DNA of 64,000 nucleotides, taken from the NCBI RefSeq assembly GCF_003668955.1, contig NZ_RAWO01000002.1, forward strand, positions 215,605-279,604. The letters run 5' to 3'. Position numbers and translations under genes: made by a program. The notes under the pieces are model-generated. The model was given only the letters and a program-made list of their open reading frames with translations. It had not been told where the DNA came from and made no database searches. This document shows positions 3,661 through 26,641 of this stretch, one piece after another (position 1 is the stretch's first letter; the number at the start of each line of letters is the position of its first letter). This DNA comes from Corallococcus sp. AB038B. GTDB taxonomy: Bacteria; Myxococcota; Myxococcia; Myxococcales; Myxococcaceae.

Positions 3661-3674
3661 CGGCGCCCCCGGAG

Positions 3675-11200: not shown

Positions 11201-14200
11201 CAATTCGAACTTGGAGGTCGCGGTGTCCGCCTCCAAGGGGTGCAGCGACAGGGCCTGGCTTTGAAGAGGCTCCGTGCCGGGTACGCCTTGCAGGGAGAAG
11301 AGGACCTGGAAGAGCGGAGCGCGGCTCATGTCGCGCGTGGGGTGAAGCTCCTCCACCAGCCGCTCGAAGGGGACGTCCTGATGGGCGTAGGCTCCCAGCG
11401 CCGTCTCCTTCACCTGCGCGAGCAAGGCCCGGAAGGAGAGGTCGGGGGCAACGCGTGCACGAAGCACCAGCGTGTTGACGAAGAATCCGATGAGGTCTTC
11501 GAGCTCCCCGCGCTGACGTCCAGCGATGGGAGAGCCGACGGTGACGTCCTGCTGGCCGGAGTAGCGGGAGAGCAGCACCTGGAAGGCGCTCAGCAGCAGC
11601 ATGAAGGGCGTGACGCCCTCCTGGAGACCCAGGGCCTTGATTCGACTGGACGCCTCGGCTGGCAGGACGACGGGCACCTGCGCGCCGTTGGAGGACTGCA
11701 CGGGAGGCCGGGGCTTGTCCGTGGGCAGCTCCAGCGGAGCGGCGCCGGAGAGCTGCTGCTTCCAGTAGTCCAGTTGCGCCTGGAGGACGTCGCCCTGCAG
11801 CCACTGTCGCTGCCATACGGCGTAGTCGGCGTACTGCACGGGCAGGGGTGGCAACGGCGAAGGCCGGCCCTGGGAGAAGGCCTCGTAGAGGGCGGCCACT
11901 TCGCGCACCAGCACGCCCATGGACCAGCCGTCGGAGACGATGTGGTGCAGCGTGAGCGCGAGCACGTGCTCGGTGGAGCCCAGGCGCCAGAGCTTCGCGC
12001 GGGCCAGGGGACCTGCGTCGAGCTGGAAGGGCCGCGAGGCCTCCTCGTGCAGCTGCGGCTCCAAGGGAAGGGCACCCGGCTCCACGACGACGAGCGGCAG
12101 CTGAGCCGTGGCGGCGATGCGCTGAAGCGGTTGGCCTTCGTGCTGGACGAAGGTGGTGCGCAGGGCTTCGTGACGACGCACCAGTTCGTCGAGCGCGCGT
12201 CGCAGCGAGGCTTCATCCAAAGGGCCCACCAGCCGCACGAAGGTGGGCATGTGGTAGGCGGCGCTCAGTGGCTGCAACTGGTCGATGAACCAGAGGCGCT
12301 GCTGGGCGAAGGAGAGGGGCGGGTCGCCGTCGCGAGGAACAGGGCGCAGGGCGGGAGCTTGCGTGCGCGCGGCGGAGTCGATGCGCGCCGCGAGCGCGGC
12401 CACGGTGGGCGCTTCGAAGAGCGCTCGCACCGGCAGCTCCACCTCGAAGGTCTGCCGCACCCGCGAGACCACCTGCGTCGCCAGCAACGAGTGACCACCG
12501 AGCGCGAAGAAGTCCTCCTCCACGCTGATCCGCTCCGTGCGCAACAGCCCGGCCCACAGGGCCGCGAGCCGTTCCTCGGTGGGGGTTCGCGGGGCGATGA
12601 AGGTCGCTTCGCGGGTCGTTTCTTCAGGCCCGGGCAGGGCCTTGCGATCCAACTTGCCGTTCGAGGTGAGCGGCATCGCTTCCAGGTACACGAAGGCGGC
12701 AGGCACCATGTAGGCCGGCAGCCGCTCCTGGAGGAATGCGCGCAGTTCCCCGGCGGACACGGGCTCCGCCGCACTCACGACGTAGGCCACGAGCCGCGTG
12801 TCCCCGGGCATGTCCTCGCGCGCCACGACCCAGGCCTCACGTACGGCGGGGTGTTCGCTCAGGGCCGCGGTGACTTCTCCCGGCTCAACACGGAAGCCGC
12901 GCACCTTCACCTGGAAGTCGGCGCGACCGATGAACTCCACGCGTCCGTCCGGCAGCCAGCGCACCCGATCCCCGCTGCGGTACATGCGCGCGCCTGGGAC
13001 GGGGCTGTGCACGTCTGGCAGGTAGCGCTCCGCCGTCAGCTCCGGCCTGCCGAGATAGCCGCGCGTTACCTGCGCGCCGCCGATGAACAGCTCGCCCGGG
13101 ACGCCCACGGGCACGGGCCGCAGCCTTTCGTCCAGGACATACAACCGCGTGTACGCCAGGGCTTGGCCCAGCGGCACCGGTGCCTGGGGCCGGACCTCCA
13201 CCGGACCCGCGATCACCCCCACGGTCGTCTCCGTGGGGCCGTAGTGGTTGAACAGCTCGCAGTCTGGCGCCAGCGCGCGCAACTGCTCCAGCAGGGCCGG
13301 CGAGGAGGACTCACCTCCCAGCACCAGCTTCTTCCGGGGCAGGATGTGGCGGGGCTCGGCCGCTGTCAGCAGTGCGGCCAGGTGCGATGGAACGATCTTC
13401 ATGCAGTCCACCGCGTGGCGCTGGAAGTACGCGGCCACCTCCGCGGGACTGCTGGCCAGCTCCTGCGGCAGCACGTGAAGCAGGCCTCCCGTGCACAGCG
13501 CGGGGAAGAGCACCGTGTTGCCCAGGTCCGCGGCGAAGGTGGAGAGGAGCGCGAAGCTTGCGCACTCCTCCAGCCGCAGCCTTTCGGTGGCGGCCCGCAC
13601 GTACTGGAAGAGCTGGGCATGCTCCACGGCCACGCCCTTGGGTCGGCCCGTGCTGCCCGACGTGAAGAGGACGTAGGCCAGTGACCGCGCGGTGGCTCCG
13701 TGGACGGGAGCTTCCCGTGGCTGGGCCGCGAGCACCTGCGCGTCCGTGTCCATCCGCACCACGTGCGCCGCCAGCGAAGTGAAGGCCTCCGCGTGACGAG
13801 ACGCTGTCACGACGACGGGCGCGGCGATCTCCTCCACCAGGGCCCGCAGTCGCTGCGCGGGTTGGGACGGCTCCAGCGGGACGTACGCCCCTCCGGCCTT
13901 CCAGACCCCCAACAGAGCCACCACCATGTCCACCGAGCGCTCCAGGCACAGCCCGACGCGCGTCTCGGGCCTCACACCCAGCGAGCGCAGCCGCCACGCC
14001 AGTTGGTTGGCGCGCGTGTCCAGCGCTCCATACGTGAGCACCTCACCGGCGCAGGCCACCGCTGGTCGCTCCGGGTGGCGGGCGGCTTGCTCCTCGATGA
14101 GCGTGTGCAGGGGGCATGGTGCGACGAAGGCGTCCTCGGTCGCGTTGAAGCCTTCCATCACCTGCGCGCGTTCCCCGGCGGACAGCAGGGACAGGTCGCC

Positions 14201-17200
14201 CACGGGCGCATCCGGCGCGGCGAGCGCGGTCTCCGTCAACGTGCGCAGGTGTTCGCCCATGCGGGTGATGGTGGCCGCGTCGAACAGGTCCGTCCGGTAG
14301 AGGATCTCTCCGGCCAGGCCCTCGGGTGTCTCCGCAAGTGAGAGGTTCAGGTCGAACTTCGCCGCGACGACGTCCGACTCCACTGGACTCAGCTCCAGCG
14401 CGGATGCGCCCCCCTCCACCTGGATGGCCGCGTCCGGTGTGTTCCTCAGCGTGAACATCACCTGGAAGAGAGGGGAGTGACGAAGGGAGCGCTGTGGCTG
14501 GAGCTCCTCGACGAGCTTCTCGAAGGGGAGGTGCTGGTGCTCGAAGGCCGAGAGCGTGGTGGCCCTCACTTGGGCAAGCAGCTGACGGAACGACGAGCGC
14601 GGCTCCACGTGGGAGCGAAGGACGAGGGTGTTGACGAAGAAGCCGATGAGGCCTTCGGTTTCGGAGCGGGTGCGGCCCGCGATGGGAGCGCCGACGCTGA
14701 TGTCGAGCTGGCCGGAGTAGCGGGACAGGAGCAGCTGCCAGAGGGCGAGCAGGGCCATGAAGGGAGTGGCGCCTTGCTGCTGGCAGAAGTCGAGGAGGCT
14801 GGAGGTGAGGGGCTGGGGAAGATGGAAGGGGACCCACGCGCCGCGAGAGGACTGGACGGCGGGACGCGGCCTGTCGGTGGGTAGCTCAAGGAGCGCGGGG
14901 GCACCGGAGAGTTGCTGGCGCCAGAAGTCGAGGTGGCGCGAGAGGACGTCGCCTTGCAGCCACAGCCGCTGCCACGCGGCGAAGTCGGCGTACTGGAGGG
15001 AAAGGGGCGGCAGGGGTGAAGGCCTGCTCTGGGAGAAGGCCGCGTAGAGGGATGCGACCTCACGCACGAGCAGGGCCATGGACCAGCCGTCGGAGACGAT
15101 GTGGTGCATCGTCACCACCAGCACGTGCTCCTCCGCGCCGACTCGCAGCAGCAGGGCTCGCAGCAGCGGACCCTCCGCCAGATTGAACGGGCGTTGGGTC
15201 TCTGCTTCGGCGCATTGCCGGACGCGCTCCGAGTCCGAAGCGTCCGACAAGTCCACCTCTGGCAGAGCGAACTCCGTGGGAGGCTGGATGATCTGCACGG
15301 GCTCGCCGTCCTGCGTGGCGAAGACGGTGCGCAGGGCTTCGTGACGTTCGACGAGCCCGCTGAAGGCCCTGCCCAGCGCTCCCCGGTCCAGGCGTCCGCG
15401 GATCCGCAGCACCGTGGGGATGTTGTAGGCGGTGCCTCCGGGTTCGATTTGCTCGATGAGCCACAGGCGCTGCTGCGCGAAGGACAGCGGCAGGGCGCCC
15501 GTGCGTGGCACTGGCAGAAGGGGCGGAGCCCGCGATGCGTCCTCGGGGCGGGCCGCGTCCAGCCGGCGTGCGAGCGCCGCGAGCGTCGGGGCTTCGAAGA
15601 GGGCTTGCAGCGCCAGCTCGACGCCGAAGTCCGCGCGGATGCGGGAGACGAGCTGTGTGGCCAGCAGCGAATGGCCTCCCAACTCGAAGAAGTGATCCTC
15701 CGAGCCCACTTGCTCCACCTGGAGCAGCGGCTTCCAGAGCGCCGCGAGCCGCTCCTCCGTGGGCGTGCCCGGGGGCACGTGGCCCGGAGCGCCGCTCGCG
15801 CGGAGCTCGGGTGAAGGCAGGGCCCTTCGGTCCACCTTGCCACTAGAGGTGAGCGGCAACGCATCCAGCACGACGAGCGTCGCGGGCACCATGTACTCGG
15901 GCAGACGCTGCTGGAGGAACACGCGCAGCGCGGCCACGTCCAGAGGCCCGTCCCCGTTCGCCACCACGTACGCGACCAGCCTGGGCAGCCCCGGTGCATC
16001 CTCGCGCACCAGCGCCACGGCCTGGAGGACCGCCGCGTGCGCTTGCAGCGCGGCCTCCACCTCTCCCAGCTCGATGCGGAAGCCTCGCAGCTTCACCTGG
16101 AAGTCGGTCCGGCCCAGGTACTCGAGGTCTCCCTTCTGCCTCCAGCGCACGCGGTCGCCAGTGCGGTACATCCTCGCGCCGGGCTCGGTGCCGAAGGGAT
16201 CAGGGAGGAAGCGCCCGGCGGTGAGGTCCGGACGGCCCAGGTAGCCCCGGGCCAATCCCACGCCTCCGATGAACAACTCTCCCGGCACGCCCACGGGCAC
16301 CGGACGCAGGTGCGCATCCAGCACGTAGAGCCGAGTGTTGGGCCACGGCTTGCCGATGCCGGGCGCGTCGGCGTGGACTGGCCCTGGCGTGATGGAGGCG
16401 CAGACGGTGGCTTCGGTGGGACCGTAGGCGTTGAGCAGGGTGCGGCCCTCACTCCAGCACCGGGCAATCTCCGGCGACAGGGCCTCGCCCGCGGAGATGA
16501 CGGTGCGCAGGCTCGCGAGGTTCTCCGACGTTAGCTGCGCCAGTACCGACGGCGTCAGCGTGACCGCGGTGATCTCCTGCTCGGTCAACAGCGCGCGCAG
16601 CGGCGCGTCCGGCAGCAGCCGCTCCCGAGGGGCCAGCACCAGCGTGGCACCCGCGAGCAGTGGCGCGAAGGTCTCCAGGATGGCGGCATCGAAGGTCGGG
16701 GACGCGAACTGGAGGACGCGGCTTTCAGAGGACAGTTCATGCGCTCGGATCGCCGCGAGCACCGAATTGCACAGCCCCCGGTGCGCGAGGAGCGTGCCCT
16801 TGGGCCGTCCGGTGCTGCCCGAAGTGTAGATGACGTAGGCCAGGTTCCCGGCGTGGACCTCCACCGCCGGTGGCGTCGTGGGGCGGCGCGAGATGGCGGC
16901 CGCGTCGGCGTCGAAACAGCACGGCACGCAGGACGAGGACAGGGGCAGCACGTCCAGCAGCGCGTCCTGGGTCAGCAGCACCTGGAGCCCCGAGTCCTCC
17001 AGCATCAGCGCGAGCCGCGCGGTGGGATGGGCGGGATCCAGGCAGAGGAAGGCGCCTCCCGCCTTGAGGATGGCGAGCATTCCCACCACGCCCTCCACCG
17101 AGCGCTCCACGCACAGCCCCACGATGACCTCGGGGCCCACCCCCAGCGCGCGCAGGTGGTGCGCGAGTTGATTGGCGCGCGCGTCCAGCTGGCGGTACGT

Positions 17201-20200
17201 GAGGTGTTGCGTCTCGAAGACGACCGCCCGCGCGTCTGGCGTGCTGCGGACCTGCGCCTCGAACAGCGTGTGCAGGCTCGCGTCGCGCGGGAAGTCCGCG
17301 TCGCTGGTGTTCCACTGCACCAGCAACTCGTGGCGCTCGGCGTCCGTGAGCAGGGGCAGCTCGGACAGCCGCAGATGGGGGCTTCGCAGCGCCCCCTCCA
17401 TCAGCACGTGCAGATGGGTGACCAGGCGCCGTGCCGTCTCCGGGCGGAACAGGTCGCTGGCGTACTCCAGCGTGCCCGTCAGGCCTCGCGGCGTGTCGGT
17501 GAGCACCAGCGTCAAGTCGAAGCGGCCCGTGCCGCCCTCGATGGGAATGGGCTCGAAGCGCAGCCCCGGCGCCTCCAGCGTGCCCATGGGCATGTTCTGG
17601 AACGTGAAGTTCACCTGGAAGAGCGGCGAGCGCGAGGGATCCCGCTCCGGCCGCAACGCCTCGACGAGCTTCTCGAAGGGCAGGTCCTGGTGGGCGTGCG
17701 CCTCCAGGGTCGTGTCGCGCACGCGGGCAAGCAGCTCGCGGAACGTGGGGTCCGCGTGCAGGCGAGTGCGGTACACCAGCGTGTTCACGAAGAAGCCGAT
17801 GAGCGCTTCCTGCTCCGCGAAGCGGCGGCCGGCCATCGCGCTGCCGACGCTCACGTCGTCCTGTCCTGCGTAGCGGCTGAGCAGGGCCTGGAATCCGGCC
17901 AGCAGGGCCATGAACGGGGTCACGCCTTCGGCCTGGCACAACGCCGCCAGGGACTCGGAGAGCGCGCGCGGCAGGGCGACGGGCACTGCGTCGCCACGGA
18001 AGGACGCCACCGGCGGACGCGGGAAGTCGGTGGGCAGCGTCAGGAACGCGGGGGTGCCTTCCAACTGCTGACGCCACCAGCGGATCCGCGACTCCAGGGC
18101 CTCCCCCCGAAGCCACGCGCGCTGCCACGCGGCGTGGTCGGCGTACTGCACCGGCAGCGGGGCCAGCAGGGAGGGCTGCCCGGACGCGAAGGCCTGGTAG
18201 AGGGCCACCATCTCCCGGACCAGCACGCCCAGCGACCAGCCGTCGGAGACGATGTGGTGCATCGTCACCACCAGCACGTGCCGCGCCTCCGCGAGCCGGA
18301 TCCGCACCGCGCGCAGCAGCGGCCCCGCGGCGAGGTCGAACGGACGCAGTTGCTCTTCCGCCGCGAGCCGGTGTGCCTCCGCTTCGGGCGCGTCGTGGGA
18401 CGACACGTCCATCACCGCCAGCCGGAAGTCCGCCGGCGGGTGGATGCGCTGCAGGGGCGCTCCGCCGTCCGCGTGGAAGGTGGTGCGCAGTGCTTCGTGC
18501 CGGCGGACGAGCTCCGTGAAGGCCTGCTCTAGAGCCGCCGTGTCGACGCGGCCCTCCATCCGGAGGGCGGACGGCATGTTGTAGGCGCTGCCTCCCGGGT
18601 GGAGCTGATCGAGGAACCAGAGGCTCTGCTGGGAGAAGGACAGCGGCAGGGGCTGTCCATCGCGAGGCACCGGCGTCAGCGGCGGGAGGATGTTCGCGGG
18701 AGCGCCAGCAGCGGTCGCGGCGTCCACGCGCTCCGCGAGCTTCGCGGGCGTGGGCGCTTCGAAGAAGGCGCGCAGGGGCAGCTCCACGGCGAAGGCGGAC
18801 CTCACGCGCGCGAGCACCTGGGTGGCCAGCAGCGAATGTCCGCCCAGCTCGAAGAAGTCATCGTCCACGCCGAGCGCGTCGATGCCCAGCATCTCCTGCC
18901 ACAGCTCCACCACGCGGCGCTCGCTGTCGCCACGGGGCGCCACGTACGGAGTCGCCAGGGGAGGGCGGGGATGCCGTCCTGTGTCCTGGGAACCGCTAGC
19001 CGGATCCGGCGCCGTCCCGGAGTTCCCACCGGCATCCGGCTCCTCCGCGCGCGGCGGGCCCTGGGAGATCCACCAGCGTCCTCCTTGCCCCGAGGCGGCG
19101 AGCAGACCCAGCCACACCGGGATGACCTCCTCCCGCCACGCATCCAGGTCGACCACGTACCAGCGTGGGCCCGGGCCCCGGTTCTGTTGCGCCGCGAAGG
19201 TGTCCATCGAGGCATGCGCGGCGGCCAGCACGCCACGGCCCACGCCGCCCACCACGGCCGTCAGCGAAGAACACACCGTTACGAAGTCCGGAGCACGCCC
19301 CTGGAGCGCTCCGGCCAGCGCGCCCAGCACGCCCACTCGGGAGCGGAAGACAGGCGCCCACGCCTCATCCGTGGCGTCCGCCAGGGATTGCCTGACCGCG
19401 CCCGCCGTGCCCTGCGGCAAGAAGAAGACGCCGTGGATCGCGCCGAAGCGGGCCTCGGCTGCGAGCAGCCCTTGGAGGAGCGGTTCGGGATCACCCGCGC
19501 CCATCGGAGCGAGGAGCACGCCCTGGGCCCCCATGCGCTCGAGATCCCCGAGGCGCTCCAGGTGGGACGCCTGAGGCACGGTGTCGGTCAACAGCACCAG
19601 CCTCGCCCGCGCGGTGGTGGAGAGCGCTTCGGCCAGAGCGAGGCCTCCGGCCTCCAGGTCTCCCATGATCAGGTACACGCCGCTCTGGCGCAGGGGGGAG
19701 GCCGCCGTGCGCGACGCGACGACCGGCTCGAAAGACTCCGTGAAGCGGTGCGGTCCGCGCAGCGCGACCACGGCTGGTGCGCCCGCGCCCAACTCCGCTA
19801 CCAGCTGCTCCGCCCAGCGTGGACCTTCCTCCGGCCGTGGCGGGCTCACGTCGATGGCGCGGCAGCGCAGCCCCGGGTACTCCTGGGACAGCACCCGGCA
19901 CACGCCGGACGCGGTGGCCTGCCAGGCGCGCAGGGGCTCCTCGCCCGTCACATCCTGGGCGCCACACGTGATCACGGCCAGCGTCACGGGCCGCGCGGCT
20001 GCGGCCGGCCCCAACCGCCGCGCGAGCTCCAGCAGTCCGTGAAGCACGCGGTCCACCGCGCCCGAGCCCTCCTCCGGGGACAGAGGCCACAGGAACGCGA
20101 CGTGGTCCGGTCCTCCACCGGCAGCCAGCCGTTCCTCGAGCGGCGCCCATGTCGCGTCCAATCCCAGCGCGAGGACGTCCGCGCCCCGCGCCTCCATCAG

Positions 20201-23047
20201 CCGCGCGATGCTTCCACCAAGCGCGTTCGCATCCTCCATCACCAGCCAGCGCTGATCATCGAAGCGGGGGACGGGAGCGCCCGCGATGCGCTGCCACGTG
20301 GGCACCGCGCACTCGAGCGCGGGGGGGACGTCCTCGCGGGGGACCTCGGACACGGCGAAGGCCGGAAGCCGGGCACCTGGAACAGACGCGACCGCGAGCA
20401 GGTCGAAGCGCTCCCGCTGGAAGGGGTAGGGCGGCAGCGGAACGCGGCGGCGGGGCTCCTTGCCGTACAGCTTCGCCAGGTCGATGGATGCACCGGCCAG
20501 CCAGAGCCGCGCGGCGGTCTCCGTCAGGTGCAGGTGGGCGTCCTGTCCGTCGCGTGGGCGTGGCAGCGACGTGAGGGCGGTGGGGGGATTGCCCGGGGGC
20601 GCGCACTGCCGGACGAACGTTCCCAGGGCCTGGCCCGGACCGACTTCCAGATAGAGCCGCTCCGTGCTCCCGAGCAGCGTGGTCGCGGCCTGCGCGAAGC
20701 GGACGGGTTCGCGCAGGTGGCGCGCCCAGGTTCGTGGATCCGTGGCCTGCGCGGCGGTGATCCACGTCCCGGTCAGGCTGGAGACGTACGGCCGCTTCGG
20801 CGGCGACAGACGGACGCGCGAAAGCTCCTGGAGGAAGCCCTCCACCATCGGCGCCACGGCCTCCGAGTGGAACGCGTGCAGGGCGCGGACTCGCCGGGTG
20901 CTCACGTCCCTGGCGGCCAGCGTCGCCTCCAGCGCCTCCAATGCCTGGATGGGCCCAGCCACCACGACCAGCGCGGGTGCGTTCACCGCCGCGACGGAAA
21001 CCCCTGGTGGCAGCAGCGGCGCGAGTGCGTCCTCTGGCAGGGACACCGACAGCATGCCGCCGGGAGGCAGCGCATCCATGAGGCGCCCGCGCGCGGCCAC
21101 CAGCGCCAGCGCGTCCGGGAGCGAGAACACGCCCGCGAGGCACGCGGCCACGTACTCGCCCGTGCTGTGGCCGACCATGGCCTCCGGCTCCACGCCGAAC
21201 GAACGCCACAGCTGCGCGAGCGCGTACTCCACCGCGAACATCGCGGGCTGCGCGAAGGTCATCCGCTCCAGCAGCGCCTCCGCCTCATTCGGTGCCTGAT
21301 CCGGAAACAGCACGGAGCGCAGGTCCTGGCCCAGGTGCGGGGTCAGCGCGTCGCGGCACGCGTCCAGATGCTTGCGGAAGACGGGCTCCGCTTCGTACAG
21401 CGCGCGGCCCATGTCCACGTGGTGGCTGCCGTGGCCTGGGAAGAGGAACACCACGGGGCGGCGAGCGTTCACGCTCGAGCCCCCCAGGTGGCGCCGTGGA
21501 TCCGCCAGCGCGGCCCGCGCATCCTCCAGGTCCCGGCAGAGCAGCGCGCGCCGGTGCTCATGCGTGCGGCGGCCCCGCTGGAGCGTGGACGCGACGTCCG
21601 CCAGCTCCAGTCCCGGCGTGCGCTCCAGGTGCGCGGCGAGCCGGGACGTGGCCTCCTCCAGCGCCCGGGGCGTGCGCGCGGACAGCGGAAGCACGTGCCA
21701 CGCGCGCCGGGTTCCGGCGGCCTTCGCGCGCGGCGGCTCCTCCAGCACCACGTGGACGTTGGTGCCCCCCAGGCCGAACGAGCTGACCCCGGCCCGGCGC
21801 TTCACCGCCCCGTCCCACGGCCTGGGCTCGGCGGTGACGAAGAAGGGGCCGCCGTCGAAGTCGATGGAGGGGTTGGGCTGCTGGAAGTGGGGCGTGGGAG
21901 GGATGACCGCGTGCTTCAGGGCCAGCACCGTCTTGAGCAGCCCCGCCACGCCCGCGGCGGAGTCCAGGTGGCCGATGTTCGCCTTCACGGTGCCCAGCAC
22001 GCAGCGCCGCGTGCCCGAGCGCGCGCCACCGAAGGCCTGGTTGAGCGCGGCGACCTCCACCGGGTCGCCCAGGGCCGTCGCCGTGCCGTGCCCCTCTACG
22101 TACTGCACGTCCTCCGGCTCCACGCCCGCGACGCCCAGCGCCTCCGCGATGGCGGCCGCCTGGCCCTCCACGCTGGGCGCGGTGAAGCCCGCCTTGGCGG
22201 AGCCGTCGTTGTTGACGGCCGACCCCAGGATGACCGCGTGGACGGTGTCCCGGTCCCGCACCGCCTCCGACAGGCGCTTGAGCACCACCACGCCCACGCC
22301 CGAGCCGAAGATGGTGCCCTGCGAACGAGCGTCGTACGCGCGGCACAGCCCGTCCGGGGAGATGATCATCCCTGGCTGGTACGCGTACCCGGCCGCCTGC
22401 GGGAACGCCACGGAGACGCCGCCCGCGAGCGCCATCTCGCACTCGCCCGACAGGAGGCTCTGACAGGCCAGGTGCACCGCCACCAGCGCGCTGGAACAGC
22501 CCGTCTGCACGGTGGCGCTCGGCCCGCGCAGGCCCAGGCGGTGCGAGGTGCGTGTGGCGACGAAGTCCTTGTCGTTGGCGAGCGACAGGTTGTACAGGCC
22601 CACCGTCTGCAACAGCTCTGGACGCCGCAGGAGCGCCTGGAACAGGTACGAGCTGGTGCTGGTGCTCGCGAAGGCGGCGATGGCCTCGGGGAAGCGCTCC
22701 GGGTCGTAGCCGGCGTCCTCCAGGGCCTCCAGCGCCGTCTCCATGAAGACGCGCTGCTGCGGATCCAGCACCTCCGCCTCGCGCGGGCTGTAGCCGAAGT
22801 ACCCCGCGTCGAAGTGCGTGGGCCCGTCCAGTGGATACGCGGCGCGCACCCAGTCCGGCCGCTCGCGCTGGGCACGGGGCACACCGGCCTGCTCCAGGTC
22901 CGCCGCGGTCAGCTCGCGCCGGGAGTGCACGCCGCGCCGGAGGTTGTCCCAGAAGGCGTCGAGCGTGGGAGCGCCCGGAAAGCGTCCCGACATGCCGACG
23001 ATGGCGATGCGCTCCACCGTGTCCGCCGTCTCCTCAGACATCCGCAT
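5231..23047 (-). CDS. Hybrid PKS-NRPS megasynthetase (5938 aa): KS-AT-KR*-ACP, then four C-A-T modules, then TE
   Basis: KS has 'TGCSSALVA' Cys184, 'EGHGTAT' and 'NIGH'. AT has 'GHSTGEY' and the malonyl-type 'HAFH'. KR-like domain is degenerate (see findings). ACP 'LGGHSLLATQ'. Four C domains carry 'HHIVSDGWS', four A domains 'YTSGSTGxPKG...NxYGPTE...GELxIGG', four PCPs 'GGHSLLA'. C-terminal TE 'GGWSLGTVIA'. ATG at 23047 overlaps the upstream NRPS gene by 14 nt. Confidence 0.95.
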   Translation of the reverse strand: MRMSEETADTVERIAIVGMSGRFPGAPTLDAFWDNLRRGVHSRRELTAADLEQAGVPRAQRERPDWVRAAYPLDGPTHFDAGYFGYSPREAEVLDPQQRVFMETALEALEDAGYDPERFPEAIAAFASTSTSSYLFQALLRRPELLQTVGLYNLSLANDKDFVATRTSHRLGLRGPSATVQTGCSSALVAVHLACQSLLSGECEMALAGGVSVAFPQAAGYAYQPGMIISPDGLCRAYDARSQGTIFGSGVGVVVLKRLSEAVRDRDTVHAVILGSAVNNDGSAKAGFTAPSVEGQAAAIAEALGVAGVEPEDVQYVEGHGTATALGDPVEVAALNQAFGGARSGTRRCVLGTVKANIGHLDSAAGVAGLLKTVLALKHAVIPPTPHFQQPNPSIDFDGGPFFVTAEPRPWDGAVKRRAGVSSFGLGGTNVHVVLEEPPRAKAAGTRRAWHVLPLSARTPRALEEATSRLAAHLERTPGLELADVASTLQRGRRTHEHRRALLCRDLEDARAALADPRRHLGGSSVNARRPVVFLFPGHGSHHVDMGRALYEAEPVFRKHLDACRDALTPHLGQDLRSVLFPDQAPNEAEALLERMTFAQPAMFAVEYALAQLWRSFGVEPEAMVGHSTGEYVAACLAGVFSLPDALALVAARGRLMDALPPGGMLSVSLPEDALAPLLPPGVSVAAVNAPALVVVAGPIQALEALEATLAARDVSTRRVRALHAFHSEAVAPMVEGFLQELSRVRLSPPKRPYVSSLTGTWITAAQATDPRTWARHLREPVRFAQAATTLLGSTERLYLEVGPGQALGTFVRQCAPPGNPPTALTSLPRPRDGQDAHLHLTETAARLWLAGASIDLAKLYGKEPRRRVPLPPYPFQRERFDLLAVASVPGARLPAFAVSEVPREDVPPALECAVPTWQRIAGAPVPRFDDQRWLVMEDANALGGSIARLMEARGADVLALGLDATWAPLEERLAAGGGPDHVAFLWPLSPEEGSGAVDRVLHGLLELARRLGPAAAARPVTLAVITCGAQDVTGEEPLRAWQATASGVCRVLSQEYPGLRCRAIDVSPPRPEEGPRWAEQLVAELGAGAPAVVALRGPHRFTESFEPVVASRTAASPLRQSGVYLIMGDLEAGGLALAEALSTTARARLVLLTDTVPQASHLERLGDLERMGAQGVLLAPMGAGDPEPLLQGLLAAEARFGAIHGVFFLPQGTAGAVRQSLADATDEAWAPVFRSRVGVLGALAGALQGRAPDFVTVCSSLTAVVGGVGRGVLAAAHASMDTFAAQQNRGPGPRWYVVDLDAWREEVIPVWLGLLAASGQGGRWWISQGPPRAEEPDAGGNSGTAPDPASGSQDTGRHPRPPLATPYVAPRGDSERRVVELWQEMLGIDALGVDDDFFELGGHSLLATQVLARVRSAFAVELPLRAFFEAPTPAKLAERVDAATAAGAPANILPPLTPVPRDGQPLPLSFSQQSLWFLDQLHPGGSAYNMPSALRMEGRVDTAALEQAFTELVRRHEALRTTFHADGGAPLQRIHPPADFRLAVMDVSSHDAPEAEAHRLAAEEQLRPFDLAAGPLLRAVRIRLAEARHVLVVTMHHIVSDGWSLGVLVREMVALYQAFASGQPSLLAPLPVQYADHAAWQRAWLRGEALESRIRWWRQQLEGTPAFLTLPTDFPRPPVASFRGDAVPVALPRALSESLAALCQAEGVTPFMALLAGFQALLSRYAGQDDVSVGSAMAGRRFAEQEALIGFFVNTLVYRTRLHADPTFRELLARVRDTTLEAHAHQDLPFEKLVEALRPERDPSRSPLFQVNFTFQNMPMGTLEAPGLRFEPIPIEGGTGRFDLTLVLTDTPRGLTGTLEYASDLFRPETARRLVTHLHVLMEGALRSPHLRLSELPLLTDAERHELLVQWNTSDADFPRDASLHTLFEAQVRSTPDARAVVFETQHLTYRQLDARANQLAHHLRALGVGPEVIVGLCVERSVEGVVGMLAILKAGGAFLCLDPAHPTARLALMLEDSGLQVLLTQDALLDVLPLSSSCVPCCFDADAAAISRRPTTPPAVEVHAGNLAYVIYTSGSTGRPKGTLLAHRGLCNSVLAAIRAHELSSESRVLQFASPTFDAAILETFAPLLAGATLVLAPRERLLPDAPLRALLTEQEITAVTLTPSVLAQLTSENLASLRTVISAGEALSPEIARCWSEGRTLLNAYGPTEATVCASITPGPVHADAPGIGKPWPNTRLYVLDAHLRPVPVGVPGELFIGGVGLARGYLGRPDLTAGRFLPDPFGTEPGARMYRTGDRVRWRQKGDLEYLGRTDFQVKLRGFRIELGEVEAALQAHAAVLQAVALVREDAPGLPRLVAYVVANGDGPLDVAALRVFLQQRLPEYMVPATLVVLDALPLTSSGKVDRRALPSPELRASGAPGHVPPGTPTEERLAALWKPLLQVEQVGSEDHFFELGGHSLLATQLVSRIRADFGVELALQALFEAPTLAALARRLDAARPEDASRAPPLLPVPRTGALPLSFAQQRLWLIEQIEPGGTAYNIPTVLRIRGRLDRGALGRAFSGLVERHEALRTVFATQDGEPVQIIQPPTEFALPEVDLSDASDSERVRQCAEAETQRPFNLAEGPLLRALLLRVGAEEHVLVVTMHHIVSDGWSMALLVREVASLYAAFSQSRPSPLPPLSLQYADFAAWQRLWLQGDVLSRHLDFWRQQLSGAPALLELPTDRPRPAVQSSRGAWVPFHLPQPLTSSLLDFCQQQGATPFMALLALWQLLLSRYSGQLDISVGAPIAGRTRSETEGLIGFFVNTLVLRSHVEPRSSFRQLLAQVRATTLSAFEHQHLPFEKLVEELQPQRSLRHSPLFQVMFTLRNTPDAAIQVEGGASALELSPVESDVVAAKFDLNLSLAETPEGLAGEILYRTDLFDAATITRMGEHLRTLTETALAAPDAPVGDLSLLSAGERAQVMEGFNATEDAFVAPCPLHTLIEEQAARHPERPAVACAGEVLTYGALDTRANQLAWRLRSLGVRPETRVGLCLERSVDMVVALLGVWKAGGAYVPLEPSQPAQRLRALVEEIAAPVVVTASRHAEAFTSLAAHVVRMDTDAQVLAAQPREAPVHGATARSLAYVLFTSGSTGRPKGVAVEHAQLFQYVRAATERLRLEECASFALLSTFAADLGNTVLFPALCTGGLLHVLPQELASSPAEVAAYFQRHAVDCMKIVPSHLAALLTAAEPRHILPRKKLVLGGESSSPALLEQLRALAPDCELFNHYGPTETTVGVIAGPVEVRPQAPVPLGQALAYTRLYVLDERLRPVPVGVPGELFIGGAQVTRGYLGRPELTAERYLPDVHSPVPGARMYRSGDRVRWLPDGRVEFIGRADFQVKVRGFRVEPGEVTAALSEHPAVREAWVVAREDMPGDTRLVAYVVSAAEPVSAGELRAFLQERLPAYMVPAAFVYLEAMPLTSNGKLDRKALPGPEETTREATFIAPRTPTEERLAALWAGLLRTERISVEEDFFALGGHSLLATQVVSRVRQTFEVELPVRALFEAPTVAALAARIDSAARTQAPALRPVPRDGDPPLSFAQQRLWFIDQLQPLSAAYHMPTFVRLVGPLDEASLRRALDELVRRHEALRTTFVQHEGQPLQRIAATAQLPLVVVEPGALPLEPQLHEEASRPFQLDAGPLARAKLWRLGSTEHVLALTLHHIVSDGWSMGVLVREVAALYEAFSQGRPSPLPPLPVQYADYAVWQRQWLQGDVLQAQLDYWKQQLSGAAPLELPTDKPRPPVQSSNGAQVPVVLPAEASSRIKALGLQEGVTPFMLLLSAFQVLLSRYSGQQDVTVGSPIAGRQRGELEDLIGFFVNTLVLRARVAPDLSFRALLAQVKETALGAYAHQDVPFERLVEELHPTRDMSRAPLFQVLFSLQGVPGTEPLQSQALSLHPLEADTATSKFELQLILSDTPEGFRGTLAFNTDLFDASTASRMATHFGRLVDALLTRPDAPLASVSMLREDERRQVLVEWNTTASDYPRDASIHSLFHEQSLRTPDAVAVEAAGATLTYRQLDARANQLARFLLTLGLGPEPRIGVCLHRNVDLVVGLLGILKAGGCYVPLDPSYPPQRLAFLLADSDVAAVLTQQSLTPVLPKSSRPVVCLDSDGERIARQPVEAPHAPVRADQLAYVTYTSGSTGTPKGVAIPHRGVVRLLIGSRFVKLGPAEIVLQLAPLAFDASTLEIWGALLHGGRLVLFPQAVPSLEELGQALLRHRVSVLWLTAALFDQMQQEQPQALAAVAQLLAGGDVLPVPRVRERLAQSRGLVNGYGPTESTTFTTCHVMAPGDAVGSSVPIGRPIANTQVYVLDAAMQPVPVGVPGELYIGGDGLARGYLGRPALTAERFVPHPFAASPGERLYRSGDRVCWSEDGTLRFLGRMDFQVKLRGFRIEPGEVEAVLREHADVTEATVLVREDVPGDKRLVAYVVPPELDTARLRDHLRQRLPEYLVPSAFVAMKALPLSAHGKVDRKALPAPEAPRGSATREPPRNALETQLVSLWEKVLGREGIGIHDHFFELGGHSLLATQLVSRIRSALEVELPVRALFEAPTVAALAARIDSAARTQAPALRPVPRDGDLPLSFAQQRLWFIDQLQPLSAAYHMPTFVRLVGPLDEASLRSALDELVRRHEALRTTFVQHEGQPLQRISATAHLPLVVVEPGALPLEPQLHEEASRPFQLDSGPLARAKLWRLGSTEHVLALTLHHIVSDGWSMGVLVREVAALYEAFSQGRPSPLPPLPVQYADYAVWQRQWLQGDVLQAQLEYWKQQLSGAAPLELPTDKPRPLVQSSNGAQVPVVLPAETSRQLKALSLQEGVTPFMLLLGSFQVLLSRYSGQEDVTVGSPIAGRQRGELEGLIGFFVNTLALRIQVDGQKSFVHLLRQVKETALGAYAHQDVPFERLVEELHPTRDMSRAPLFQVLFALQNAPAAPIREQALSLHPMDVDGSTSKFELQLILSDTPEGFQGALGFNTDLFEVSTASRMAAHFGLLVDALLARLDAPLASVSMLGEDERRQVLVEWNNTEASYPQDSTLPEVFAQVVARFPEKLALECGVARLTYRQLDAQANRLAHHLRGLGVTTDSRVAIALDRSLELVVGLLAILKAGGAYVPLDPSYPRERLAAMVEDARPRVLLTSRALLAKLPESLSTVVLEDVALEGLPTHAPAPSALPLSLAYIDFTSGSSGRPKGVGTPHRAVLRTLFSTGLTHFGPDASFLLLAPISFDASTFEIWGALLHGSRLVIAPPSPPSLEELGALIQRASITTLWLTSGLFSQMVDGHIEGLRPLKHLLTGGDVVSLPHARRVLDSLQLPVTNGYGPTESTVFATAFHLRDTTFPGASLPIGKPLANTRVYILDAHGIPLPVGLPGELFIGGDGLARGYLEQPALTAERFLPDAFSSTPGARLYRTGDKARWRPDGSLEFLGRLDSQVKLRGFRIELPEVEAALLIHPDVHQAAVLLREDVPGDKRLVAYVTAPDTLSAASLRAFLLRHLPEYMVPSAFVHLDALPLTAQAKLDRRALPPPDARATSDYVAPRTPTEALLATLWAELLHKEQVGIHDDFFASGGHSLLAVRMAASIRARTGKSLPLAALFQAPTVEQLAAVLDGGPAPTSSLVVIQRGGTRPPFFCVHPAGGNVLAFADLARRLGPEQPVYGLQAQGLDGRLPPLDSIDAMARHYVAALRSAQPHGPYRLGGWSLGTVIAAEMARHLHQAGEAVELLALIEPSPAHAAMEDDDSELALHFALDLARLAGLPPRLPAEVIEGGPEALLHHLYAEGQRTGLFSAESGLEELRILLRVFTANVRARARHTLTPLPVPLTLIVGADSGNPDARGWDALTPRLDVIPVPGDHYTLLHPPQVEGLARVLAPLLEHAAPARAHLPAAPVQPDEPPSPPSRVGGETP
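5234..6103 (-). other. Type I thioesterase (TE) release domain (aa ~5649-5938)
   Basis: 'GGWSLGTVIAAE' GxSxG nucleophile elbow, C-terminal 290 aa, downstream 'GDHYTLL' His region. Confidence 0.7.
6128..9202 (-). other. NRPS module 4 (C-A-T; aa ~4616-5640), A-domain code D-A-F-W-L-G-G-V (Val/Ile-like)
   Basis: 'FDASTFEIW', 'TTLWLTSGLF', 'LLTGGD', 'NGYGPTESTV'. Confidence 0.55.
7948..9307 (-). repeat. Intragenic direct repeat copy A (PCP3 C-terminus + C4 domain)
   Basis: aa 4581-4841 are nearly identical to aa 3537-3797, and similarity continues to aa ~5034. The same duplication shows in the out-of-frame shadow ORFs 8497-9084 versus 11590-12216 and 8210-8905 versus 11342-12030. Confidence 0.8.
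9263..12346 (-). other. NRPS module 3 (C-A-T; aa ~3568-4595), A-domain code D-A-L-W-L-G-G-T (Val-like)
   Basis: 'FDASTLEIW', 'VLWLTAALF', 'LLAGGD', 'NGYGPTESTT'. Confidence 0.55.
11080..12439 (-). repeat. Intragenic direct repeat copy B (PCP2 C-terminus + C3 domain)
   Basis: Partner of copy A. Offset is exactly 3132 bp (1044 codons), one module length. Confidence 0.8.
12398..15505 (-). other. NRPS module 2 (C-A-T; aa ~2515-3550), A-domain code D-L-T-K-V-G-H-V (Asp-like)
   Basis: A4 motif region 'STFAADLGNTV' has a 2-aa insertion, but the code matches the canonical Asp code DLTKVGHI. 'NHYGPTETTV'. Confidence 0.55.
15563..18652 (-). other. NRPS module 1 (C-A-T; aa ~1466-2495), A-domain code D-A-L-T-I-A-A-V (aromatic-like)
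   Basis: Stachelhaus positions read by aligning to GrsA motifs A4 'FDAAILETF' through A5 'NAYGPTEATV'. Confidence 0.55.
18728..23047 (-). other. PKS module KS-AT-KR*-ACP (approximate boundaries; aa 1-1440)
   Basis: Residue counting of the translated ORF: KS aa ~13-436, AT ~531-830, KR-like ~1100-1300, ACP Ser ~1405. Boundaries +/- 30 bp. Confidence 0.7.
19178..19270 (-). other. Degenerate KR active-site segment ('GVGRGVLAAAHASMDTFA' in place of 'GQxNYAAANAFLDALA')
   Basis: Alignment of aa 1260-1290 to the canonical KR motif: catalytic Tyr becomes Leu, Asn becomes His. The NADPH-binding Gly motif is also atypical ('MGDLEAGGLALA'). Confidence 0.5.
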
Positions 23048-26000
23048 CCCCGTCCAGCTCCAGGTCCGCGTCGTCGTCCGAGTCCCGCGCGGGTGCGGCC
23101 ACCGTCTTGCGAGCGAAGGCCTGTCGCCGGCGAGACCGGTCGCGTCCGGACTTCGCCCCGCTGTCGGATCCGCCGCCCTGCGCCAGGCGTTCCGCCAGGG
23201 CCCGGACCGTGGAGTGCTGGAAGAGCACCGTCAGCGGCAGCTCCACGCCCAGCTCCGCGCGCAGCCGCTGGTGCAGCCGCAGCGCGAGCAGCGAGTTGCC
23301 GCCCAGCTCGAAGAACGGATCATCCAGGCCCACGCGCTCCACCTGGAGCACGTCGCTCCAGAGCCGGGCCAGTTGCTCCTCCCGCTCCGTGCGCGGAGCC
23401 TCGAACGTTCGCCCCGATTCCAGCTGACCCGCAGTGGGTGGCGGAAGCGCGCGCACGTCCAGCTTGCCGTTGGCGGTGAGGGGGAACGCGGGCACGGAGA
23501 CGAAGGCGGAGGGCACCATGTGCGGCGGGAGCCGCTCCAGGAGGAACGCGTGCAGCGCCGTCGCGGTGGGTGGTTGTCCCGCCGTGGCCGGGACGAGCCA
23601 CGCGACGAGCCGCTGGCCCCCCGCGGGCGTGTCCTGGATGAGCACGGCGGCCTCTTCCACCGAGGCGTGCTGGCGGAGCGCCGCCTCGATTTCCCCCAGC
23701 TCGATGCGGAAGCCCCGCAGCTTCACCTGTCCATCGAGCCGGCCCAGGAACTCCAGCTCCCCGTCCTGCCGCCAGCGCACGCGGTCTCCCGTGCGGTAGA
23801 GGCGCGCGCCCGGCTCGGACGCGTACGGATCCGGCACGAAGCGCTCGGCCGTGGTGCCCGGCAGGTTCAGGTAACCCCGCGCGAGGCCCACGCCGCCCAC
23901 GCACAGCTCTCCGGGGACTCCCACTGGCACCGGCGACAGCCGCGCGTCCAGCACGTACACGCGCACATTGGGGATGGGGCGGCCCAGCGGCGGCGCGCGG
24001 CCCTCCGGCCGGACCTCCGTCGCGGTGGCTGTCACCGTCACCTCCGTGGGCCCGTAACCGTTGATGAAGCGGCGGCCCTCGCCCCAGCGCGACACCAGCT
24101 CCGCGGTGCATGCCTCGCCACCGGAGAAGACGGTGCGCAGCGAGGGCAGGCCCGTGGCGTCGGTGGCCGCGAGCGCAGTGGGCGTGGCGTTGAGCACGGT
24201 GATGGCCTGTTGCTTCAGCAGCTGGTGCAGCGGCTCGCCGGGCATCAGTCGCTCCACCGGCGCCAGGCACAAGGTGCCGCCGGCCGTGAGGGTGGCGAAG
24301 ATCTCCTCCACGGACACATCGAAGCCGGGATTGGAGAACTGGAGCACGCGCGAGGCCGGGCCCAGCTCGCTGACGCGCGCCTCGTGCACCACCAGGTTGC
24401 AGGCCGCGCGGTGCGTGGCCACGACGCCCTTGGGCTGGCCCGTGGAGCCAGAGGTGTAGATGACGTACGCGGGGCCGTCCGGCAGGGGCGCTCCAGGGGG
24501 CGCCCGCGAGGTGTCCGCATCCGGCACCCCATCCTCGAAGCACACCGTGCGCGCGCCCGGAGCGGAGGGCAGTCCCGCGAGCAGGGTCCGGTGGGCCAGC
24601 AGCACCTTCACGGCGGAGTCCTGGAGCATGAAGGCCAGCCGCGCCGCGGGATAGGTGGGATCCAACGGGACATAGGCACCGCCCGCCTTGAGCGTCGCGA
24701 GCATGCCCACCACCATGTCGAACGAGCGCGCGGCGCACAGCCCCACGTACGCCTCCGGCCCCACGCCCAACCCGCGCAGGTGCCAGGCCCACTGGTTGGC
24801 GCGCGCATCCAGCTGCCGGTAGCTCAGCGATTGGCCCTCGAAGGTGAGCGCGGGCGCGTAGGGCGTGCGGTGCGCCTGGGCTTCGAAGAGGGTGTGCAGA
24901 CCGTCCTCTTGGGGGTAGGGCGCGGAAGTGCCGCTCCACGCCCCCAGCAACTGTTCGCGCTCGTTTGGGGTGAGCAGGGGCAGCCGAGACAGGCGCTCGT
25001 GCGGCGTGGCCAGTGCTCCCTCCAGAAGGCGGATCAGGTGCGCCAACATCCGGCGGACGGTGCCGGGTTCGAACAGGTCCGTGGGGTACTCCGCGGTGAG
25101 GCGCAGTCCCTGGGGCAGGTCCTCGGCGATGAGCGTCAGGTCGAACTGGGCGGAAGCCGTGTCCACCGGACGCGCCTCCAGTTGAAGGCCCGGCACCTCC
25201 AGGGGCGGCAGCGGTGCGTTCTGGAGGACGAACATCGCCTGGAAGAGGGGCGCGCGGCTCGGGTCGCGACCGGGCTTGAGGGCGTCCACCAGCCGCTCGA
25301 AGGGAAGCTCCTCGCGAGCGAAGGCATCGAGCGCCACCGGCTGGAGACGCGCCAGCAGCTCCCGGAAGGACGGGGCACCTGAAAGGTCCGTCCGCAGGAC
25401 GACCGTGTTGACGAACAGGCCGATGAGCCCCTCCAGCTCCGCGCGGGGGCGGTTGGCCACGGGCGTTCCGACGGCGAGGTCCTCCTGACCGGTGTAGCGG
25501 TGGAGCAGGGTCTGGAACACCGCCAGCAGGGTGACGAACAGCGTGCGGCCTTCCTTGCGGGCGAACGCCTTGAGGTCCGCGGTGAGCGCGGTGGGCAGTT
25601 CCACCGCTTCGCGCGCGCCGCGAGTGCCCAGCACCGCCGGACGCGGCTTGTCCGTGGGCAGCTCCAGCAACGCGTGGGGGTCGATGCGCTCGCGCCACCA
25701 GGCGAGCCGTGCATCCGCCTCTTCGCCCTGCTGGGCCCGACGCTGCCAGCTGGCGTAGTCGCCGTACTGCAGCGGAAGCGGCGGCAGCTCGGGAGCCTTG
25801 CCCTCCTGGAAGGCCGCGTAGAGCGCCGTCAACTCGCGGACGACGACGCCCATGGACCAGGCGTCTGACACCCCGTGGTGCATGGCGAAGAGGAGCAGGT
25901 GCTCGCGCGCGGACAGCTGGAAGAGGCGCGCCCGGAACAGCGGACCCCGTTCCAGGTCGAAGGGCTCACGGGCCACCTCCGCGACGCGCTGGACGGCCCG

Positions 26001-26378
26001 GGCCTCCCGTTCTGATTGAGGAAGCGCCTGCAGGTCCTCCAGGGGGAGTGCCGCCTCCAGCGTGGGTGCGACGACCTGCACGGGCCGCCCGTCCGCCAGA
26101 GAGAAGGTGGTGCGCAGCGCCTCATGGCGGATCACCAGCGCCTGGAGCGCGCGCTGGAGCACCGGCGCCTGGAGCTCGCCCAAAAGCCGCACGGCCACCG
26201 GCATGTTCAGCGCCGAGCCCCCGGGGCTCCACTGTTCGAGGAACCACATCCGTTCCTGCGCGAAGGAGAGCGGAGCGCGCCTGGGGGCCGCGACCTTCTC
26301 CTGGAGGAGCTTCGCCAGCAGGGCCCGCTTGTCGTCCGAGGGTGACGTCATGGTTTCCATCATCGCCCTGGAGGGCAT
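23034..26378 (-). CDS. NRPS loading module: N-terminal (starter-type) C domain, A domain, PCP, acidic C-terminal docking tail
   Basis: C 'MHHGVSDAWS'; A 'YTSGSTGQPKG', 'NGYGPTE', 'GELCVGG'; PCP 'LGGNSLLAL'. C-terminus 'DSDDDADLELDGDADV'. Stop TGA 23034-23036 lies 14 nt inside the next gene. Alternative in-frame ATGs at codons 6, 7 and 10. A-domain code D-V-E-N-F-G-G-V. Confidence 0.9.
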   Translation of the reverse strand: MPSRAMMETMTSPSDDKRALLAKLLQEKVAAPRRAPLSFAQERMWFLEQWSPGGSALNMPVAVRLLGELQAPVLQRALQALVIRHEALRTTFSLADGRPVQVVAPTLEAALPLEDLQALPQSEREARAVQRVAEVAREPFDLERGPLFRARLFQLSAREHLLLFAMHHGVSDAWSMGVVVRELTALYAAFQEGKAPELPPLPLQYGDYASWQRRAQQGEEADARLAWWRERIDPHALLELPTDKPRPAVLGTRGAREAVELPTALTADLKAFARKEGRTLFVTLLAVFQTLLHRYTGQEDLAVGTPVANRPRAELEGLIGLFVNTVVLRTDLSGAPSFRELLARLQPVALDAFAREELPFERLVDALKPGRDPSRAPLFQAMFVLQNAPLPPLEVPGLQLEARPVDTASAQFDLTLIAEDLPQGLRLTAEYPTDLFEPGTVRRMLAHLIRLLEGALATPHERLSRLPLLTPNEREQLLGAWSGTSAPYPQEDGLHTLFEAQAHRTPYAPALTFEGQSLSYRQLDARANQWAWHLRGLGVGPEAYVGLCAARSFDMVVGMLATLKAGGAYVPLDPTYPAARLAFMLQDSAVKVLLAHRTLLAGLPSAPGARTVCFEDGVPDADTSRAPPGAPLPDGPAYVIYTSGSTGQPKGVVATHRAACNLVVHEARVSELGPASRVLQFSNPGFDVSVEEIFATLTAGGTLCLAPVERLMPGEPLHQLLKQQAITVLNATPTALAATDATGLPSLRTVFSGGEACTAELVSRWGEGRRFINGYGPTEVTVTATATEVRPEGRAPPLGRPIPNVRVYVLDARLSPVPVGVPGELCVGGVGLARGYLNLPGTTAERFVPDPYASEPGARLYRTGDRVRWRQDGELEFLGRLDGQVKLRGFRIELGEIEAALRQHASVEEAAVLIQDTPAGGQRLVAWLVPATAGQPPTATALHAFLLERLPPHMVPSAFVSVPAFPLTANGKLDVRALPPPTAGQLESGRTFEAPRTEREEQLARLWSDVLQVERVGLDDPFFELGGNSLLALRLHQRLRAELGVELPLTVLFQHSTVRALAERLAQGGGSDSGAKSGRDRSRRRQAFARKTVAAPARDSDDDADLELDGDADV

Positions 26379-26641
26379 GAAAACGTTGAGAACCCCGCGA
26401 ATGTCTCACGAAACATCCGGGGCTCCGACAAGCCGCTGGATCTCCCCCTTCACGGCGACTTTTCGACCCAGGGGAGGGGGCTCTTGCAGTCGCAGCGAAA
26501 CGGTGTTTCCGGCCGAGTGGCCTCCCACCGGGCCCTCTCAGGGTGAGGGGAGGGATGTCTGTTATTGATGTGTGGCTTTGCGGTGGAGAAAAGTCGCCGG
26601 GCACGCCCGTAGGCACGGTGGTCCGGGTAGACTCCGGAGCC

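Follow-up and report, generated by a model that had tools for sequence, protein, structure and literature searches.

Whether a ketoreductase (KR) domain that lacks its catalytic tyrosine still acts on the chain carried by its module, and what form of the chain leaves the module if it does not, is the question raised by a gene in a 64,000 nt segment of the Corallococcus sp. AB038B genome (contig NZ_RAWO01000002.1, positions 215,605–279,604), referred to here as the window and numbered from its first base. The gene (5231–23047, minus strand) codes for a hybrid polyketide synthase–nonribosomal peptide synthetase (PKS–NRPS) of 5,938 aa, recognized from the list of open reading frames (ORFs) and its translation, with the domain order KS-AT-KR*-T-(C-A-T)x4-TE (KS, ketosynthase; AT, acyltransferase; T, carrier; C, condensation; A, adenylation; TE, thioesterase), where KR* denotes the domain in question. 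Pfam matches within the first 1,500 aa place the KS at aa 12–388, the AT at aa 533–817, the KR at aa 1123–1305 and a carrier at aa 1377–1441, after which a C domain begins; the remainder of the protein, four C-A-T modules and the TE, was read from the translation. Immediately upstream is an NRPS gene coding for a C-A-T protein of 1,114 aa (23034–26378, minus strand; Pfam Condensation, AMP-binding and PP-binding matches, and the translation), which overlaps the start of the megasynthase gene by 14 nt, so that the complete line reads C-A-T / KS-AT-KR-T-(C-A-T)x4-TE. The upstream protein is inferred to be the source of the aminoacyl chain for the megasynthase KS, and KS-AT-KR*-T is the sole PKS module of the line. 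KR* is probably a degenerate and redox-dead domain, retained in folded form as a scaffold between the AT and the carrier, with the chain leaving the module as a β-keto unit.

Catalytic residues and cofactor site of KR*

The KR* region (aa ~901–1310; 19118–20347, minus strand) consists of a structural subdomain and a degenerate catalytic subdomain, delimited by profile and PDB alignments together with an AlphaFold2 (AF2) model and Foldseek searches. The catalytic subdomain matches the Pfam KR family (PF08659; aa 1123–1305; 19133–19681, minus strand) with 58.5 bits against a cut-off of 22.6 and over profile positions 1–179 of 180, and the match is thus weak though full-length; both this match and the location between AT and carrier identify a PKS-type KR. 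The segment at 19178–19270 (minus strand) codes for SSLTAVVGGVGRGVLAAAHASMDTFAAQQNR, at aa 1260–1290 of the ORF of 5,938 aa just as originally placed, and the claim that it has Leu in place of the catalytic Tyr and His in place of Asn is borne out by three PDB alignments and by a profile of 136 sequences. In phmmer searches of solved structures, the window sequence 'grgVLAAAHasmD' lies opposite 'gqaDYAAANsfmD' of the PksJ KR (4J1Q), and the same register is seen with the MlnE KR (5D2E) and with the KR of 6ULW, which is embedded in a keto-acid-selecting NRPS module. The custom profile was built from 136 KR catalytic subdomains bearing Lys, Tyr and Asn, taken from the nearest relatives in a library of 1.84 billion proteins; the window KR matches it with 124 bits (E = 3.5e-40), in the register of the PDB alignments and with high posterior probabilities.

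By both types of alignment (all positions on the minus strand), Arg1237 (CGA; 19337–19339) occupies the position of the catalytic Lys, Leu1274 (CTG; 19226–19228) that of the Tyr, and His1278 (CAT; 19214–19216) that of the Asn, and the catalytic Ser position is retained in Ser1260–Ser1261 (19265–19270). A Tyr/Ser/Lys triad elsewhere in the domain, the result that the original prediction named as counting against it, is impossible because aa 901–1376 contain no Lys and none of the four Tyr residues in this interval (1057, 1125, 1297 and 1368) is in the catalytic column. Tyr1057 is in the structural subdomain, Tyr1125 is part of the conserved 'GVY' of β1, Tyr1297 lies in the 'RWY' strand ahead of DxDxW (a position filled by Phe, Ile or Leu in active relatives), and Tyr1368 is in the linker to the carrier. 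The scan of the 1.84-billion-protein library, which served for residue statistics, returned relatives of no more than 49% identity, mostly in multi-KR megasynthases; approximately 95% of the 251 nearest KR segments (from a protein library clustered at 50%) carry Tyr in the catalytic column. His for Asn and Arg for Lys are also found in relatives that retain the Tyr (P0085, P0090, P0116 and P0128), and these two substitutions are therefore not diagnostic of inactivity on their own; loss of the Tyr together with the cofactor site is. We note that these four sequences represent a KR subfamily in which Arg and His stand at the Lys and Asn positions, respectively, and the Tyr is kept ('AYTAAH'). 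A sequencing error or frameshift was considered as a source of the missing residues and rejected, as the ORF is intact and the residue state is common to four genomes.

The cofactor site is similarly altered. The Rossmann glycine motif was originally described as irregular, and the sequence quoted for it, LIMGDLEAGGLALAEAL, is found at aa 1126–1142 and is indeed degenerate: profile and multiple alignments show GDLEAGG (aa 1129–1135; 19643–19663, minus strand) in place of GGxGxxG, where the profile of active relatives reads GGlGgiG. After β2, the segment 'LLTDTVPQASH' (aa 1152–1162; 19562–19594, minus strand) has TDT for the basic 'GRS/SRR', and the TDT is followed by a deletion of 17–18 aa relative to all relatives, in the loop that would bind the NADPH 2'-phosphate. 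The 'AD' motif ('aaDv' in active relatives) is replaced by 'APMG', and 'GVihaAG' by 'GVFFLPQG' (aa 1206–1213; 19409–19432, minus strand), such that 'HxAG' becomes 'FLPQ'. Finally, the segment that follows the DxDxW strand, REEVIPVWLGLLAAS (19091–19135, minus strand), is ~12 aa shorter than in active relatives and in the two Tyr-less clades described below (clades B and C). In the usual reading of short-chain dehydrogenase/reductase (SDR) and KR motifs, the altered positions are cofactor contacts and part of the lid/substrate region, and we infer that the window KR has neither a catalytic apparatus nor a recognizable NADPH site. Neither of the features of a competent A- or B-type KR is present, namely the NADPH motifs (GGxGxxG and basic residues after β2) and the Lys-Ser-Tyr(-Asn) site, and canonical NADPH binding or carbonyl protonation by KR* can, as judged from these alignments, be ruled out.

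The original prediction of a redox-incompetent KR0 is thus strengthened by the additional loss of the catalytic Lys, the degenerate or deleted cofactor motifs, the shortened segment after DxDxW and the relaxed selection described below. With the KR fold apparently kept, the reductive machinery lost and dN/dS below 1, we take KR* to be a KR0 of the non-reducing, non-epimerizing 'C1' kind in Keatinge-Clay's terms. The AF2 model of the domain was built from a six-sequence alignment and has a mean pLDDT of 61 with a β-α-β pattern in two halves; its top Foldseek hits in the PDB are all KR domains (6ULW, 5D2E, 4J1Q, 2FR0, 3MJE and others) with E values of ~1e-13 and TM scores of only ~0.37–0.40. The model is consistent with a KR fold and is too weak for statements at the level of the pocket.

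The remainder of the PKS module is well preserved. The KS (aa 12–388; 21884–23014, minus strand; Pfam and motifs) has its Cys in 'TGCSS' (within aa 182–189) and its His residues in 'EGHGTAT' and 'NIGHLDS', and the AT (aa 533–817; 20597–21451, minus strand; Pfam and motifs) has GHSTGE and HAFHS, the HAFH being presumably a malonyl-CoA-type motif. The carrier domain T1 (aa 1377–1441; 18725–18919, minus strand; Pfam) has a 'GGHSL' motif with the carrier Ser that is like that of peptidyl carrier proteins (PCPs), and its best solved relatives are NRPS PCPs; the C domain after T1 has the motif 'MHHIVSDGWS'. From these conserved catalytic motifs, the PKS module looks condensation-competent and the upstream NRPS module intact. 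We note that T1 is preceded by a HPRPPLATPYVAPR linker (18725–18973), which we take to resemble NRPS A–T linkers, and that the solved structure with the best profile match to KR* is the KR of 6ULW, which is embedded in an NRPS. The PCP-like carrier, the A–T-like linker and the 6ULW match together suggest that the KR–carrier unit shares ancestry with A-KR-PCP depsipeptide modules.

Relatives of the module and selection on KR*

A single scan of GTDB species-representative genomes yielded 29 loci with related modules. Orthologues with the same C-A-T / KS-AT-KR-T order and an adjacent SelA gene are carried by C. carmarthensis CA043D, with 86% identity in the KR, and by C. exercitus SDU142, with 80%, and a third is in C. 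llansteffanensis (63% KR identity), where the contig stops inside the KR. All three have the Arg, Ser-Ser, Leu and His residues and a degenerate glycine motif. More distant relatives lacking the Tyr are of two types. Clade B (L004–L007) is in Archangium (A. minus in the case of L004) and Vitiosangium, and clade C (L008–L018 and L023) represents a second cluster present in many Corallococcus species; in both, Lys is replaced by Arg, Tyr by Leu or Val, and Asn by His, and both keep GGLGRxG, SRR and the long β2 loop. The Arg, the Ser-Ser and the His (in 'AAAH') are invariant over the three clades, which are ~40–47% identical. Clades B and C are in different clusters from that in the window, and their lines are preceded by a PKS with a terminal sulfotransferase domain. 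Active KS-AT-KR-T modules of myxobacterial NRPS–PKS hybrids (L019–L022, L025 and L028) resemble the window module in architecture, in the PCP-like carrier and in the 'AQDVTGEE' signature of the structural subdomain; they differ in having GGLGRxG, GRS, AD, HSAG, Lys, Tyr and Asn, and their KR identity to the window is 35–39%.

In a neighbor-joining tree (without bootstrap support), the three Tyr-less clades group together, apart from the nearest active Lys/Tyr/Asn myxobacterial KRs. Because two other myxobacterial cluster families share the Arg/Ser/[Leu,Val]/His state yet keep the glycine motif, the simplest reading of the sequences suggests that the catalytic residues were lost once, long ago, and that the cofactor site decayed afterwards in the window lineage. 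A neighbor-joining tree was also examined for nesting of the KR* clade within the Arg/Tyr/His subfamily; its branching is unresolved and possibly distorted by long-branch attraction with other Tyr-less KRs.

In L004–L007 (~750–2330 and ~2950–3650) and L009–L017 (~720–2300 and ~2930–3600), the gene upstream of the C-A-T gene ends in AT-KR-ACP-sulfotransferase (ACP, acyl carrier protein) and is CurM-like. The sulfotransferase domain of the CurM-like type normally acts on a β-hydroxyl generated by an active KR. The KR of this sulfotransferase PKS is also without the triad, with Lys replaced by Gln, Tyr by His or Gln, and Asn by Ser, and its glycine motif reads 'TEGLTGIG' or 'TDGLTGIG'. In C. coralloides KYC2213 (L017, 7232–15816), the line appears to end with KS-AT-KR*-T and has no TE, reductase or C domain; after it come genes for an MFS transporter (11897–13384) and a penicillin amidase (13381–15816).

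Comparison of the window with its orthologues shows that KR* evolves faster than the other parts of the module. The two closest orthologues are L001 and L002. Identities to L001 are 98% for KS, 95% for AT, 98% for T1, 87% for the KR structural subdomain and 88% for the catalytic subdomain; those to L002 are 99, 95, 98, 88 and 89%, respectively, and those to L003 are 94% (KS), 88% (AT), 70% (KR structural) and 60% (KR catalytic). Nei–Gojobori dN/dS values for the window against the three orthologues are 0.19–0.46 for the KR catalytic subdomain, 0.26–0.37 for the structural subdomain, 0.06–0.11 for KS and 0.18–0.27 for AT. By dN/dS, KR* evolves two to four times faster than the conserved domains of the module, yet the value (0.2–0.46) remains below 1, and on these sequences KR* appears to be maintained as a folded, non-catalytic domain under relaxed but still purifying selection, a pattern compatible with a scaffold on which catalysis imposes no constraint. 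In the pair of L019 and L028, the nearest active one, KS and the KR catalytic subdomain are 88% and 78% identical, and in clade B (L004–L007; catalytic subdomain at ~10620–11240) the two are about equally conserved, at 86–94% and 82–93%. We also note that dS against C. carmarthensis and C. exercitus is about twofold higher in the KR region (19118–20347; 0.19–0.29) than in KS (21884–23014; 0.09–0.11), for which codon-usage constraint on KS or recombination are possible explanations.

Predicted product and alternative explanations

If KR* is a redox-dead scaffold, the aminoacyl chain on the first T domain, probably N-acylated by the leading C domain, would be extended by the KS with malonate to give a 4-amino-3-oxoacyl thioester on T1; without N-acylation, the free γ-amine could lactamize onto the thioester. 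The T1-bound intermediate would undergo no reduction in cis, and the β-ketoacyl donor would pass to the next C domain to form a γ-amino-β-keto amide within a pentapeptide-sized product that the TE would release. The specificity-conferring residues of the A domains were extracted from the translation and read DVENFGGVTK (A0), DALTIAAVCK (A2), DLTKVGHVGK (A3), DALWLGGTFK (A4) and DAFWLGGVFK (A5). From the published codes, we take A2 to be aromatic (Phe/Tyr-like), A3 to be Asp, A4 to be Val and A5 to be Val/Ile-like, with A0 unassigned, and the predicted product would be acyl?-X-(3-oxo C2 unit)-Phe/Tyr-Asp-Val-Val/Ile. An epimerase role for KR* (i.e. a C2-type KR0) was also considered and rejected, as there is no Tyr and, on the HAFH reading, a malonate extender leaves no α-substituent.

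Retention of the β-keto group is the best prediction because no reductase gene was found among the window ORFs scanned. Several points weigh against the explanation as a whole, however. Retention is a prediction made from sequence, and the AF2 model is of low confidence, so that the structural argument has to be carried by the sequence alignment. A reductase acting in trans could lie elsewhere in the genome, and the visible DNA past the downstream (TE) end of the megasynthase gene amounts to only 5.2 kb. The invariant Arg, Ser-Ser and His across clades and the KS-like conservation of the catalytic subdomain in clade B also leave room for a non-redox role.

The first of the alternatives is that KR* is dead and another reductase, with its gene elsewhere, acts on the β-keto group on-line or once the chain has been released, so that the mature product would carry a statine-like γ-amino-β-hydroxy unit. 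Reduction by an unlinked enzyme has precedent in pepstatin, whose statine hydroxyls come not from a PKS KR but from the F420H2-dependent PepI, which reduces β-keto intermediates once assembly is complete (PMC12081711), and the view beyond the TE end of the cluster is short. However, the window ORFs scanned yielded no gene of the SDR, F420-dependent or aldo-keto-reductase type, and the neighbors are genes for a PLP-dependent decarboxylase, a ThiO-like FAD oxidase, a Ser/Thr kinase and SelA; we regard reduction in trans as unlikely.

A second possibility, to which we give a low probability, is that the domain has been co-opted for a non-redox use such as enolization, cyclization or docking of a partner enzyme, comparable to the fungal R* domains. 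Several observations favor it: the residues that are invariant among the three divergent clades, the retention of GGLGRxG and SRR in clades B and C despite loss of Lys and Tyr, the conservation of the clade B catalytic subdomain at the level of its KS, and the C. coralloides line that ends at KS-AT-KR*-T without a TE. The R* domain of CpaS also has a Tyr to Leu change and performs a Dieckmann cyclization that depends on Asp and His residues (PMC3202784). However, KR* is the fastest-evolving part of the module in the window clade, where there are two deletions and the cofactor pocket is lost; it is internal, with four more modules and a TE following, so that no release chemistry is needed; and R* belongs to the thioester-reductase family and is placed after the carrier. 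A broader version, and a similarly doubtful one, is that the KR-like domains with Arg/Ser-Ser/[Leu,Val]/His in hybrid lines of Myxococcaceae and Archangiaceae constitute a neofunctionalized, non-redox SDR family of which the window copy is a late and partly eroded member. Such a family might handle the reactive γ-amino-β-ketoacyl thioester, for example by controlling enolization, by preventing or promoting lactam or Dieckmann cyclization, or by releasing the chain where there is no TE, and the TE-less line of C. coralloides would be the most plausible setting for a non-redox role of a Tyr-less KR.

That the entire PKS module is inactive or skipped and no ketide is incorporated seems very improbable: a single decayed domain could be a sign that the whole module is failing, but nothing direct points to this, the KS Cys/His/His, the AT GHSxG/HAFH/Arg and the T Ser are all present, and KS and T1 are the most conserved parts (98–99% against the two closest orthologues), with the KS under the strong constraint noted above. 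Least credible is that KR* remains an NADPH-dependent reductase through unconventional residues, as Ser1260 is kept and Arg and His could in principle donate protons but Tyr and Lys are absent, and so are an intact glycine motif, the loop for the 2'-phosphate and the cofactor contacts of Asp and HxAG. A dead KR retained as a scaffold, with the β-keto group passed on, thus remains our preferred explanation.

Gene neighborhood and comparison with known systems

Two genes lie just past the TE (2146–5234). Directly downstream of the megasynthase gene is one coding for a PLP-dependent decarboxylase (3675–5234, minus strand), similar to L-2,4-diaminobutyrate decarboxylase and PanP; its top NCBIfam matches are L-2,4-diaminobutyrate decarboxylase and the PanP aspartate 1-decarboxylase, both far under the cut-off. 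Convergent with it is a gene for an FAD oxidoreductase of the ThiO/DAO family (2146–3660, plus strand; ThiO-like match). The decarboxylase is a possible member of the cluster and membership of the oxidoreductase is uncertain; the two enzymes may provide an unusual building block or alter one, perhaps the substrate of A0. Beyond them is a Ser/Thr kinase gene (709–1743, plus strand), and at the other end, divergent from the cluster, is a gene for the selenocysteine synthase SelA (26543–28036, plus strand). Further away, the regions at 36563–39028 and 40405–44428 (both minus strand) contain housekeeping-type genes coding for an OPT-family oligopeptide transporter, a TgpA-like transglutaminase and a MoxR-type AAA ATPase. 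The leading C domain of the C-A-T protein contains 'HHGVSDAWS' (aa ~166–175; window 25800–25900), and thus HHxxxDA and not HHxxxDG, and its identity to the C domains located after the sulfotransferase PKS in the related clusters is 58–60%. These sequences raise the possibility that the window cluster is a truncated derivative, with the leading C domain as its present start.

Corramycin (com), myxoglucamide (mxg) and coralinone (corA) were each considered as the identity of the cluster and rejected, as the architectures differ, and our literature search found no paper on this cluster or on its sulfotransferase-containing relatives. Standard annotation tools flag inactive KRs, which are common, and a KR0 is a known kind of feature, found here in an uncharacterized cluster; in this respect the finding is routine. 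Its use is first in predicting a structure for a lipopeptide-like Corallococcus product, where a 4-amino-3-oxoacyl (γ-amino-β-keto) unit provides an expectation for mass and NMR in genome mining. Such a unit is electrophilic, prone to epimerization and related to the pharmacophores of statine-type protease inhibitors. Second, the relatives suggest that decay of this KR was stepwise, with the catalytic residues going first (in three cluster families) and the cofactor site and the segment after DxDxW later (in the window lineage only). The purifying selection seen throughout this decay suggests that the body of the KR is structurally needed, which would be useful in engineering KS-AT-KR-T modules.

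Known KR0 domains include Keatinge-Clay's type C1 and the C2-type DEBS KR3 and PikKR3. KR* resembles the KR0 domains of modular PKSs in its apparent two-subdomain architecture between AT and carrier, in the loss of catalytic and NADPH motifs and in the β-keto group predicted to result. It differs from those of DEBS/Tyl-type PKSs in being nearest to the KRs of 6ULW, PksJ and MlnE (a hybrid NRPS–PKS/trans-AT-like lineage) and in being followed by a PCP-type carrier. With the fungal R* domain of CpaS it shares the Tyr to Leu change (Leu1274 in the window), apparently the SDR fold and, by prediction, the absence of NAD(P)H chemistry (PMC3202784), although R* is terminal, follows the carrier and releases tetramic acids, whereas KR* is an internal domain of the β-ketoreductase family with T1, four C-A-T modules and a TE after it. 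A parallel in the genus is CorA, the coralinone synthetase of Corallococcus exiguus, with the order A-T-C-A-T-KS-AT-ACP-TE (PMC10979478). There too an NRPS hands over to a PKS and the malonate-derived β-keto group is left unreduced (PMC10979478); however, no KR-like domain is present in CorA, whose PKS module is the terminal one, whereas the window module is internal and still contains a dead KR.

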